A stretch of 64,000 bases of DNA from Escherichia coli O127:H6 str. E2348/69 (GTDB lineage Bacteria; Pseudomonadota; Gammaproteobacteria; Enterobacterales; Enterobacteriaceae), in NCBI RefSeq assembly GCF_000026545.1, contig NC_011601.1; one strand, written 5' to 3'. Position numbers: made by a program. Shown here piece by piece: positions 36,001-39,000 of this stretch (its first letter is position 1; every line of letters begins with the position of its first letter).

Positions 36001-39000
36001 CGATGGGTTTCGCCTTTCGGCGGCGCTGCGCCATCGTATCCGGTTTTACCAAAGTCGGTACGCGTCTGCAAAACGCCGTCTGGCATTGCTACCAGACCAG
36101 AGCCAAACCCTTGCGGTAATACGCGGGTATCAGCGGGTAAATTAACAACTACCCAGTGCCACCAGCCGGAGCCAGTTGGCGCATCCGGGTCGTAGCAGGT
36201 GACAACAAAACTTTTCGTTCCCACAGGAACATCATCCCACGCCAGATGCGGTGAAATATTATCGCCATCGTAACCCATGCCGTTAAAGACATGACGATGC
36301 GGCAGCTTATCGCCATCGCTCAGATCGTTACTGATGAGTTTCATTAGAATGCCTCCGGGAAACCTCGGCCTTCAGACCGGGGAGGAAAGGAGGCGGTTTT
36401 CCGACTAACTGTACTTTGCATAATCACATTTTCCTCTTTAGTATGTGAACACATGAAACGCGCATATAAATACCGGTTTTACCCGACAACTGAGCAGGCT
36501 GAGCTTTTAGCTCAGACGTTTGGCTGTGTGCGCTTCGTCTACAATTCCATCCTTCGTTGGCGTACCGATGCGTACTACGAGCGAAAAGAAAAGATCGGTT
36601 ATCTACAGGCCAACGCTCGCCTTACGGCGCTCAAAAAAGAGCCTGAATACATATGGCTGAATGATGTTTCCTGCGTTCCCCTCCAGCAGTCGTTGCGCCA
36701 CCAACAAGCCGCCTTTGCTAACTTCTTTGCCGGACGAGCTGCATATCCGGCTTTCAAAAGCAAACGGCACAAACAGGTGGCTGAGTTCACTGCCAGCGCG
36801 TTTAAACACCGTGACGGCGAGTTGTATATAGCAAAGAGCAAGTCGCCGCTGGATGTTCGCTGGAGTCGAGAATTACCATCTGCGCCGTCAACCGTTACCA
36901 TTTCCAGAGATAGCGCTGGCAGGTACTTTGTTTCCTGCCTGTGTGAGTTTGAACCTGTATCAATGCCTGTTACCGCTAAAACGGTCGGCATTGATGTGGG
37001 CTTAAAAGATTTATTCGTCACCGATACCGGATTCAAAACCGACAATCCCCGCCACACCGCTAAATATGCGAAGCGATTAACGCTGCTACAGCGACGTTTA
37101 AGCAGGAAGCAAAAAGGCTCAAGAAACCGTATTAAAGCCCGCTTAAAGGTCGCCCGACTCCACGCGAAAATCGCCGATTGCCGGATGGACAATCTGCACA
37201 AGTTGTCCCGCAAACTGATTAACGAAAACCAAGTTGTTTGCGTCGAATCCCTCAAGGTGAAAAACATGATCCGCAACCCGAAGCTGTCTAAAGCAATAGC
37301 TGACGCAGGCTGGAGCGAACTTGTTCGCCAGCTCCAGTACAAAGGCAAATGGGCCGGGCGGTCAGTGGTCGCCATTGACCAGTATTTACCGTCCTCAAAA
37401 TGCTGTAGTTGCTGCGGTTTCACCATGCAAAAAATGCCTCTTAATGTTCGTAAATGGCACTGCCCTGAATGCGGCGCAGACCATGATCGCGACATTAACG
37501 CGGCACGTAATATTAAAGCTGCCGGGCTGGCAGTGTTAGCCCACGGAGAGCCTGTAAACCCTGAATCGCAGCACGCGGCTTAGGTTCGGCTCGTTGAAGT
37601 GGGAATCCCCGTCATTCAGGGCGGGGAGCCGTCAAGAGCCCTCCTTTCTTGTTTGCAGAAAGTGTAGCCAGAAACCCTCACGCTGACTTCCCGTTATTGG
37701 CAAAAAAATGTTTCATCCTGCACCGCACGGTTAACCGCTGCGGTCAGACGCTGCAACTGTTGCGGGAGAATAATATAGGGCGGCATCAGGTAAATCAGTT
37801 TGCCAAAAGGCCGGATCCAGACACCCTGTTCGACAAAGAATTTTTGCAGCGCTGCCATATTCACCGGACGAGTGGTTTCGACCACGCCGATTGCCCCCAG
37901 TACGCGCACATCGGCAACCATTTCGGCGTCACAGGCGGGGGCAAGTTGCTCGCGTAGCTGCCCTTCAATAGCCGCCACCTGATGCTGCCAGTCGCCAGAT
38001 TCGAGAATCGCCAGGCTGGCGTTTGCTGCTGCGCAGGCCAGCGGATTGCCCATAAAAGTTGGCCCATGCATAAAGCAGCCGGCTTCGCCGTTACTGATGG
38101 TTTCCGCAACCTCGCGCGTGGTGAGCGTGGCGGAAAGGGTCATTGTGCCGCCGGTTAAGGCTTTACCGAGACATAAAATATCCGGCGCGATTTCTGCATG
38201 TTCACAGGCAAACAGTTTGCCGGTACGACCAAATCCGGTGGCGATCTCGTCGGCAATCAGCAAGATACCTTCGCGATCGCACATTTTGCGGATTCGTTTT
38301 AACCATTCCGGATGGTACATGCGCATCCCGCCTGCGCCCTGGACAATCGGTTCAATGATCACCGCCGCGATTTCATGACGATGCGCCGCCATCAGGCGGG
38401 CAAAGCCCACCATATCGCGCTCATCCCATTCGCCATCCATGCGGCTTTGCGGGGCGGGAGCAAACAGGTTTTCTGGCAGATAGCCTTTCCACAGGTTGTG
38501 CATTGAGTTGTCCGGATCGCACACCGACATCGCGCCAAAGGTATCGCCATGATAACCATTGCGGAAGGTTAGAAAACGCTGGCGCGCTTCGCCTTTGGCC
38601 TGCCAGTACTGCAACGCCATTTTCATCGCCACTTCTACCGCTACGGAGCCGGAGTCCGCGAGAAAAACGCACTCCAGCGGTTGCGGCGTCATTGCCACCA
38701 ATTTGCGGCACAGCTCAATGGCGGGCGCATGGGTGATACCGCCAAACATCACATGCGACATAGCATCAATTTGCGACTTCATCGCCGCATTAAGCTGCGG
38801 GTGATTGTAACCGTGGATCGCCGCCCACCAGGACGACATACCGTCAACCAGGCGTCTGCCGTCAGACATAATTAGCTCGCAACCTTCGGCGCTTGCCACC
38901 GGATAAACCGGCAGCGGGGAGGTCATGGATGTGTATGGGTGCCAGATATGGCGTTGGTCAAAGGCAAGATCGTCCGTTGTCATAATCGACTTGTAAACCA

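Follow-up and report, generated by a model that had tools for sequence, protein, structure and literature searches.

A tnpB-only IS200/IS605-family element matching ISEc42 inserted between ybhB and bioA in Escherichia coli E2348/69, with a predicted omega RNA and flank-derived guide

The ybhB-bioA junction and the boundaries of the insertion

The window, a stretch of 64,000 nucleotides of the E. coli O127:H6 strain E2348/69 genome, carries ybhB and bioA on the minus strand, and the intergenic stretch between them, which in this strain is exactly 36345-37693, holds a tnpB gene on the opposite strand. In K-12-type genomes these two genes are adjacent, as the original prediction had stated, and are 58 bp apart. 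The features of the locus are as follows.

35868..36344, minus strand: ybhB (context), whose start codon abuts the left end of the element
36341..36344, plus strand: TCAT, the target or transposon-adjacent motif (TAM) and left cleavage site, lying in the flank (empty-site comparison)
36345..37635, plus strand: whole element of 1291 bp, matching ISEc42 (IS200/IS605 family, IS1341 group; empty-site alignment)
36345..36452, plus strand: left end (LE), non-coding, 108 nt (LE alignment of more than 20 loci and IS609)
36359..36362, plus strand: GAAA, four bases on the 5' side of the LE hairpin that correspond to the "left guide" of IS608 and covary with the target
36363..36382, plus strand: LE subterminal imperfect hairpin CCTCGGCC-TTCA-GACCGGGG (covariation in 22 sequences)
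36453..37583, plus strand: tnpB coding sequence, 376 aa, with RuvC triad and zinc finger intact (ORF call, NCBIfam, Pfam, structure alignment)
37518..37635, plus strand: putative omega-RNA scaffold core, 118 nt and six helices (covariation; the 5' limit is putative)
37603..37606, plus strand: GAAT, four bases on the 5' side of the RE hairpin ("right guide"), kept as GAAT or GGAT in relatives and IS609
37606..37627, plus strand: right-end (RE) subterminal hairpin (T)CCCCGTC-ATTCA-GGGCGGGG(A) (covariation of helix 6)
37632..37635, plus strand: TCAA, the right cleavage site and final four bases of the element (invariance of GTCAA in relatives)
37636..37655, plus strand: predicted guide, starting at the first base past the RE boundary
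37694..38983, minus strand: bioA (context; coordinates transferred from RefSeq)

The comparison with uninterrupted junctions that the original prediction had proposed was carried out with ST131 and K-12-type genomes, and it placed the ends of an exact 1291-bp insertion at 36345 and 37635. The alignment of filled and empty sites showed neither target duplication nor terminal inverted repeats, which is a criterion of the IS200/IS605 family, and the junction was seamless (empty, ...TTTCAT/GAGCCC...; filled, ...TTTCAT/TAGAATG...GTCAA/GAGCCC...). When the element was compared with 16 relatives by blastn, similarity stopped precisely at element position 1291. The LE directly follows TCAT, in keeping with the specific tetra- or pentanucleotide target of the family, and the CAT of this target, read on the minus strand, is the start codon of ybhB. 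The native ybhB Shine-Dalgarno sequence, at about 37640-37646, is now 1.29 kb from that start codon.

Of 5426 complete E. coli genomes, 341 (6%) carried the insertion here when scored by the LE-ybhB junction, including Nissle 1917, CFT073, 536 and E2348/69, and about 5077 had an uninterrupted ybhB-bioA junction. The solo TnpB that had been described as wedged between the two genes is thus a true insertion, polymorphic in the species and with an exact empty site elsewhere, and not a gene held at the same site by all E. coli. The carriers have one copy per genome, the copies are 99-100% identical, and one of them, in strain 33F4, has a frameshifted tnpB. The identical TnpB protein was present on at least 1000 contigs. 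Given 99-100% identity between the copies, the ORF may be intact because the insertion is young and not through selection.

TnpB, the predicted omega RNA and the subterminal hairpins

The 376-aa ORF on the plus strand was recovered exactly as first called, and its identification as a TnpB with RuvC and zinc-finger motifs was confirmed by several searches. The RefSeq protein (WP_000817269.1) is named "RNA-guided endonuclease InsQ/TnpB family protein", scores 369.5 bits against the NCBIfam model guided_TnpB (cut-off 100), matches HTH_OrfB_IS605, OrfB_IS605 and Cas12f1-like_TNB in Pfam, and aligns over its full length with the ISDra2 TnpB structures (E 9e-75). The RuvC triad D181/E265/D347 corresponds to D191/E278/D361 of ISDra2, and the CxxC...CxxC zinc finger is formed by cysteines 317/320 (318/321) and 337/340; judged by its sequence, this TnpB is apparently catalytically intact. 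A tblastn search with two Y1 transposases detected no Y1 tnpA within the 64-kb window or beside any relative, so the solo state claimed at the outset stands, and because of this absence the element belongs to the tnpB-only, non-autonomous IS1341 group, which is still inside the IS200/IS605 family. A sigma-70 scan of the upstream plus strand at set thresholds found no promoter from which tnpB or the omega RNA would be transcribed.

The omega-RNA scaffold core overlaps the final 66 nt of tnpB and continues through the right end of the element. It comprises 32 base pairs, with 94.8% of the alignment cells paired and compensatory changes in 20 pairs, as against 3-6 compensatory pairs in slid controls, and none of 500 shuffles reached the observed level. 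All of its helices can be formed in the E2348/69 copy. The covariance model of the ISEc42 family (R1) had a single match in the window, at 37506-37635 (138.7 bits), and also matched ISDra2-like elements at the 3' end of their tnpB genes (E about 1e-7). This covariation supports an omega-RNA-like structure that takes in the 3' part of tnpB together with the RE and stops at the element boundary. Within 35500-38500, Rfam 15 at E<=1 gave no omega-RNA family and one chance snoRNA match, and when the RE, LE and a palindrome upstream of tnpB were folded as single RNA or DNA sequences, z was -0.5 to -2.3, with the putative omega-RNA region at -1.3 to -2.3, which is weakly beyond shuffles and no standalone evidence. 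The ISDra2 omega RNA is characterised by a pseudoknot; a partner of this type for the 3' GUCAA was sought in the element, and none could be identified because GUCAA is invariant. Two long-range helices proposed by RNAalifold (columns 10-14/238-243 and 19-25/95-101 of alignment A2) were rejected and left out of the scaffold because their changes were one-sided and within coding sequence.

The guide is predicted to begin at 37636 and to read GAGCCCTCCTTTCTTG for 16 nt, a length taken by analogy with ISDra2 (PMC10097598), or to extend to 20 nt. It had been expected in the interval separating the stop codons of tnpB and bioA, and this location is retained as a prediction and narrowed to that starting base. 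The predicted guide segment is native ybhB-bioA intergenic DNA, and TCAT joined to it is the empty site of non-carrier strains. In 17 independent insertions in other genera GTCAA is invariant at the right end and the flanks directly after it are unrelated, a complete divergence which fits flank-derived guides that vary from copy to copy.

About 20 related elements were found in other species at unrelated sites, and in 21 independent insertions they were preceded by TCAT, TTAT or TTAC, to which IS609 at TTAT can be added. The target changes together with the tetranucleotide that precedes the LE hairpin: TCAT goes with G..A (11 loci), TTAT with A..A (9 loci including IS609) and TTAC with AAAG (2 loci). 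Target position 2 (C/T) covaries with tetranucleotide position 1 (G/A) in 22/22 elements and target position 4 (T/C) with tetranucleotide position 4 (A/G) in 21/22, and the regular expression that located the target sites imposed no such correlation. As far as sequence can tell, the element thus agrees with the family criterion that cleavage sites are recognised by pairing with this tetranucleotide, and the covariation is a clean natural illustration of IS608-type target reading by base-pairing within the element.

The LE hairpin is paired in 89.3% of cells with four compensated pairs (22 sequences); the RE hairpin, which is helix 6 of the scaffold, has nine pairs, 95.4% paired and three with compensatory changes. 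The two are alike and lie on the same strand, as is expected of the subterminal imperfect hairpins of this family, and the RE hairpin is predicted to have two roles, being recognised by TnpA when in DNA form and making up the final stem of the scaffold in the omega RNA. The subterminal palindromes noticed in the original prediction are real, but their positions were 1-2 nt off, as CCTCCGGG starts at 36352 and GGGAATCCCC at 37601; the latter is not itself a hairpin and consists of GAAT and the 5' arm of the RE hairpin. The element ends, which had then been hard to define, are clear and conserved in independent insertions.

Agreement with ISEc42 and comparison with known elements

ISEc42 is listed for E. 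coli as a tnpB-only element of 1294-1295 bp with a 376-aa TnpB, cleavage sites TCAT (LE) and TCAA (RE), and about one copy per genome, the copies being about 99.8% identical (PMC9956272, Table S1); 161/165 copies were scored as intact (PMC9956272). All of these descriptors agree with the element in the window, the published length being that of 1291 bp plus TCAT, and no difference was detectable. The element therefore matches ISEc42, a name given by the published descriptors (PMC9956272) and not by the ISfinder sequence, and a protein cluster look-up returned generic names without the ISEc42 label. Literature searches on ISEc42 found catalogue and MGE-finder mentions only and no functional work, and those on TnpB and Nissle found no study of the ybhB-bioA locus. 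The element is already known, being in ISfinder, annotated in RefSeq as an RNA-guided endonuclease and having published cleavage sites, and as a typical representative of a class that is well understood it is of small discovery value.

The ends of IS609 of E. coli K-12, which consists of the tnpA pseudogene yncK and insQ/tnpB, are homologous to those of the window element. Its LE hairpin is CCCCATCC-TTCA-GGGCGGGG with AAAA before it, its RE hairpin has GGAT before it and ...GTCAA after it, and the block GGCG(C)GGTTTTCC past the LE hairpin is common to both. IS609 differs in having a divergent Y1 tnpA, the target TTAT instead of TCAT, a length of 1748 bp and a 402-aa TnpB.

In IS608 of Helicobacter pylori, reportedly the mechanistic paradigm of IS200/IS605 transposition through the studies of Barabas et al. 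in 2008 and Guynet et al. in 2009, the left target site is likewise said to be read by the tetranucleotide that comes just before the LE hairpin. The RE of the window element resembles that of IS608 in having GAAT 5' of the hairpin and a TCAA terminus, and its TTAC-using relatives carry AAAG, which is the IS608 pair. The window element differs from IS608 in its target TCAT with GAAA, in the lack of tnpA and in an extra covarying outer helix in the LE.

The TnpB of ISDra2 (Deinococcus radiodurans; PDB 8bf8, 8exa and 8h1j) has the same triad and zinc finger at about 40% protein identity, and the window TnpB lacks its disordered C-terminal part of roughly 30 residues. In both elements the scaffold closes with a hairpin and GAG..UCAA, after which the guide follows, and the 118 nt of the window scaffold compare with 116 nt for the functional scaffold of ISDra2 (PMC10097598). 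ISDra2 differs in its TAM (TTGAT versus TCAT here) and has its own tnpA.

Origin of the insertion and its possible activity

We consider it highly probable (roughly 85%) that the locus holds a complete, single-copy and non-autonomous ISEc42, which goes back to one inherited insertion and whose TnpB and predicted omega RNA would be guided to the empty junction. The element would have entered once, by single-strand peel-and-paste, directly 3' of the TCAT that overlaps the ybhB start codon, in a strain ancestral to some E. coli, mostly of phylogroup B2, and would have been inherited at this site since. By the established TnpB mechanism, the omega RNA would read past the TCAA end into the flank and so acquire the guide, and TnpB loaded with it would cut TCAT followed by the guide sequence, which is the element-free ybhB-bioA junction, with TCAT+GAGCCCTCCTTTCTTGTTTG as the candidate target. 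Such cleavage may destroy excision products or empty alleles, and recombination may then restore the element. Movement would need TnpA in trans, for which IS609 is the closest candidate because its ends are homologous. For the window element, omega RNA and nuclease activity alike are predictions from sequence.

Less probable, but to be taken seriously, is an inert relic, that is, a stranded and non-mobile insertion with a silent or inactive TnpB and omega RNA, in which the ORF is intact merely through recency. The single copy per genome and the lack of tnpA in the window and beside the relatives are in its favor, as are the near-identity of the carrier copies, which leaves little time for decay, the frameshifted copy of 33F4 and the missing sigma-70 consensus promoter on the plus strand upstream of tnpB. 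Against it are the full set of intact catalytic and zinc residues, the omega-RNA helices that all remain formable in the E2348/69 copy, the high proportion of intact copies in the published count (PMC9956272), the wide occurrence of the identical protein and the evident mobility of the family across genera at independent sites.

A position at a single fixed site within the bioA-ybhB transcription unit, in antisense orientation and kept in several lineages, might also suggest that TnpB was domesticated for a role in the host, such as that of a TldR-like RNA-guided regulator of bioA or ybhB. TldR proteins are nuclease-dead TnpB-like repressors which have lost RuvC residues or have a truncated C-terminus, have lost the transposon ends and carry a guide that matches a host promoter. 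Unlike these, the window element has an intact triad, transposon ends and cleavage sites preserved on either side, and a guide that is merely the adjacent flank, and on these grounds the domesticated reading was rejected as very improbable; the relatives at unrelated loci with unrelated flanks and carriage by only 6% of E. coli also speak against it. An ancestral E. coli gene lost from most strains has nothing but the fixed position in its favor, and it is refuted, to the point of being negligible, by a seamless empty site whose sequence is identical as far as the boundaries, by boundaries that are conserved IS ends present at unrelated sites in other genera, and by the small minority of carriers.

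It is doubtful, in our judgment, that the complete ISEc42 insertion goes further and encodes an active nuclease against unoccupied ybhB-bioA junctions, with an allele drive or barrier and a rewiring of ybhB by the LE. If this were true, carriers would cleave gal-bio alleles that lack the element and arrive by transduction or conjugation, and would convert them or keep them out; this would amount to a natural allele drive, or to a barrier against recombination, beside the lambda attachment site. The LE would also swap the ybhB ribosome-binding site for its own GGAGG and possibly add an outward promoter, for which a promoter-like site on the minus strand at 36449-36420 is the candidate, and ybhB expression would thereby be rewired.

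The practical value is modest and lies in exact ends, a TAM (TCAT), a scaffold core and a native guide of 16-20 nt for a TnpB that is resident in the widely used strains Nissle 1917, CFT073 and E2348/69. In the engineering of such strains, DNA containing TCAT+GAGCCCTCCTTTCTTG, for example ybhB-bioA fragments of K-12 or ST131 type, might be cut. The protein may also serve as an enterobacterial TnpB with a 4-nt TAM.

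Insertion site and identity of the element

The solo tnpB of the window, whose reading frame appears in the ORF listing, is flanked by ybhB and bioA as follows.

35868..36344, - strand: ybhB, one neighbour of the tnpB ORF
36453..37583, + strand: tnpB ORF, 376 aa
stop at 37694, - strand: bioA, the other neighbour

The 1349-bp stretch between ybhB and bioA is 100% identical to that of E. coli Nissle 1917, and only its last 62 nt match in most E. coli genomes. The two genes are 58 bp apart in one ST131 and one K-12-type genome, in line with the adjacency in K-12 given in the original prediction. 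As that prediction had proposed, comparison with an uninterrupted junction gave the exact ends, since the alignment of the empty site (...GATGAGTTTCAT|GAGCCCTCCTTTCTTG...) with the filled site of the window (...TTTCAT|TAGAATGCC...GGAGCCGTCAA|GAGCCCTCC...) had a single unambiguous solution, in which the insert is 36345-37635 (1291 bp). It has neither a duplication nor terminal inverted repeats and is directly preceded by TCAT, in which CAT is the ybhB start codon read on the opposite strand. The reading of the gene as ancestral at this site was refuted.

By its descriptors the element matches the already known ISEc42. A survey of TnpB-containing elements (Genes 2023, PMC9956272, Table S1) lists it for E. 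coli as identical to an ISfinder entry of the IS1341 group, with 165 copies in 164 genomes, 1294-1295 bp, a TnpB of 376 aa, 99.8% identity among copies, and cleavage sites TCAT at the left end (LE) and TCAA at the right end (RE). Our independently derived element fits this entry, because 1291 bp plus the 4-nt TCAT makes 1295. ISEc42 has been reported from B2-ST1193 genomes and ISEc42-like elements from Endozoicomonas acroporae, a species from which our genome-collection scan also recovered relatives. Neither the 64-kb window nor the neighbourhood of any relative encodes a Y1 transposase, in agreement with the lack of tnpA noted earlier, which places the element in the tnpB-only IS1341 group of the IS200/IS605 family. 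The homology of its ends to those of the K-12 element IS609 is clear, and from this we infer that IS609 TnpA is the obvious candidate to mobilise it in trans. We found no functional study of this ISEc42 TnpB in the literature; the present analysis adds exact positions of the ends, of the target-adjacent motif (TAM), of the scaffold and of the predicted native guide.

Through the insertion the native Shine-Dalgarno sequence of ybhB, AAGGAGG, has become separated from the start codon and now lies at ~37640-37646. The LE (36345-36359) offers a GGAGG that lies 7 nt ahead of this ATG (- strand: CCCGGAGGCATTCTA-ATG), a candidate replacement, judging by sequence, for the displaced ribosome-binding site. 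A promoter-like site directed towards ybhB (36449-36420, - strand; TTCACA-18-GATTAT with TG) is a consensus match only, and the scan gave 2 sites where chance alone predicts 1.2, a weak signal.

A lambdoid prophage occupies the lambda attachment site left of ybhB, and its tail end, at ~23700-35364, carries tail genes, Lom and a tail fibre; the genes for the type III effectors nleH, truncated cif and espJ come next. The region matches EPEC E2348/69; in Nissle 1917 ybhC directly adjoins ybhB.

25819-29232: prophage gpJ
31647-32537; 32761-33417; 34711-35364: further prophage-region features

The TnpB protein and its upstream region

The 376-aa protein scored 369.5 bits (cut-off 100) with NCBIfam 'guided_TnpB' and 400 bits with 'IS200_TnpB', and carries three Pfam domains (HTH_OrfB_IS605, OrfB_IS605 and Cas12f1-like TNB); RefSeq labels the gene 'RNA-guided endonuclease InsQ/TnpB family protein'. 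It aligns over its full length with the solved structures of ISDra2 TnpB (E 9e-75). When the two proteins are aligned pairwise, the counterparts of D181, E265 and D347 are ISDra2 D191, E278 and D361, the catalytic centre according to Nakagawa et al. (PMC10097598), and the zinc finger CxxC...CxxC was found. The ORF, profile, structure-alignment and catalytic-residue results bear out the description of an intact solo TnpB of 376 aa between ybhB and bioA with its RuvC and zinc-finger motifs; the palindromes reported with it exist, but their coordinates were offset by 1-2 nt.

There is no Shine-Dalgarno sequence before tnpB (36416-36455). A -10-like TAGTAT (36439-36444), 8 nt before the ATG, lies within an inverted repeat TCACAT...ATGTGA (arms 36424-36429 and 36443-36448), which relatives retain with different sequences (CTTACA...TGTAAG, CCAGTG...CACTGT). 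This pattern suggests a leaderless tnpB mRNA and/or an operator; the single-sequence fold of the repeat was not significant.

Predicted omega RNA and guide

RNAalifold, run on an alignment of the 3'-terminal 240 nt from 17 elements, placed six helices in the closing ~118 nt.

37518-37635, + strand: predicted omega-RNA scaffold, supported by covariation, mapped to the window

The 32 pairs of the scaffold are 94.8% paired in this alignment, with both-sided changes in 20 of them as against 3-6 when partners were slid by 1-3 columns, and none of 500 shuffles reached the observed pairing or covariation score. Several helices lie inside the tnpB reading frame (e.g., helix 1 at 37518-37534), and protein coding alone does not explain their compensatory changes. 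A covariance model of the scaffold, the kind of search suggested earlier, had exactly one match in the 64-kb window, over the tnpB 3' end and RE (37506-37635, 138.7 bits), and found all relatives. It also matched the tnpB 3' end in two ISDra2-like Deinococcus elements (E 1.6e-7 and 6e-6), whose ...GAGG-UUCAA end and terminal hairpin align with the ...GAGCC-GUCAA and hairpin of ISEc42. No Rfam family matched the omega-RNA region, and no pseudoknot was identified in the predicted scaffold.

The functional ISDra2 scaffold is 116 nt with a 16-nt guide (PMC10097598), the same size as that predicted here (~118 nt). With such a scaffold ending at 37635, the guide of the window copy should start at 37636 and read GAGCCCTCCTTTCTTG(TTTG), which agrees with its earlier placement between the tnpB and bioA stops. 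Preceded by TCAT, the predicted guide exactly reproduces the ybhB-bioA junction as it stands empty in ST131-type strains; in K-12-type strains guide position 3 is different (GAA, not GAG).

We put the probability that this is a standard IS200/IS605 solo-TnpB element in identity and architecture at about 0.85. Under the established TnpB model, the omega RNA would read into the flank and TnpB would cut the TCAT plus guide target; since this target has the sequence of the excised or empty site, its cleavage would favour retention of the element. That the copy is a young inert relic rather than still active seems to us rather improbable. Domestication to a TldR-like role is unlikely, given an intact nuclease triad, two intact transposon ends and relatives that occupy unrelated loci.

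Relatives, element ends and distribution

Forty loci (L-numbers) with TnpB relatives of 63-87% protein identity, among which one 99% match is a metagenome bin, were found in Serratia, Leclercia, Pantoea, Klebsiella, Providencia, Salmonella diarizonae, Kluyvera, Zobellella, Pseudomonas, Endozoicomonas and others. In 16 relative loci blastn similarity ends exactly at position 1291, and GTCAA is the terminus in 17/17 sequences, followed by mutually unrelated DNA. The left flank always ends in TCAT, TTAT or (two loci) TTAC, and the tetranucleotide immediately 5' of the LE hairpin varies in step with it.

Target motifs and LE tetranucleotides
TCAT: GAAA, GATA, GAGA or GATC; 11 elements (GATC in L036 only, register ambiguous)
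TTAT: AAGA, AAAA or AATA; 9 elements, including K-12 IS609
TTAC: AAAG; 2 elements

At the RE, GAAT stands before the hairpin and TCAA is the element terminus, and compensatory changes back both the LE and RE hairpins. IS608 reportedly uses the guide/cleavage pairs AAAG/TTAC and GAAT/TCAA, and the covariation read from these sequences is what its guide/cleavage mechanism would predict. Within one close LE subgroup, the target switches between TTAC (L009, Escherichia whittamii; L042, Kluyvera) and TTAT (L016, L037, L046) together with a switch between AAAG and AAGA, which looks like a natural retargeting event. An outer helix GCCTCC/GGAGGC (36351-36356 with 36389-36394) surrounds the LE tetranucleotide and hairpin; in relatives, 5 of its 6 pairs show both-sided changes and 72% of cells are paired. 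We know of no description of such a helix in IS608-type left ends. The more distant L028-L032 (Endozoicomonas, Zooshikella) have an apparent putative terminus ...GGGGAGTGTCAG, not GTCAA, and an extra stem-loop ahead of the terminal hairpin.

The ybhB/LE junction is present in 341 of 5426 complete E. coli genomes (200-nt probe, full match), and the uninterrupted junction in 5077 (40-nt probe, at least 80% covered). The element occurs once per genome, with chromosomal copies 99-100% identical; carriers include Nissle, CFT073, 536, NC101, NRG857C and O127:H6 E2348/69. The sole clearly decayed copy among those seen (L006; calf isolate 33F4, NZ_CM147849.1) is at the same site, 98.1% identical, frameshifted and 14 bp shorter, and the prophage at the lambda attachment site there is another one, with gtr genes. 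Elements roughly 80% identical to ISEc42 occur on about 58 E. coli plasmids, which seem to include P1-type phage-plasmids; these elements are probably the relatives of 'ISEc90' type listed in PMC9956272. Representatives lie between repB and umuC on plasmid pKP444-4 (L004) and, on an about 100-kb plasmid (L005), between a gene of hypothetical product and one for a phage portal. On plasmid p21AR0133C (L007 2501-2571; NZ_JBSAOW010000004.1), a 71-nt fragment that shares 94% identity with window 37550-37620, from the tnpB end up to and including the RE hairpin's 5' half, stands alone between two HTH genes without tnpB; by its sequence it is a truncated right-end relic, and it scored 42 bits with the covariance model.
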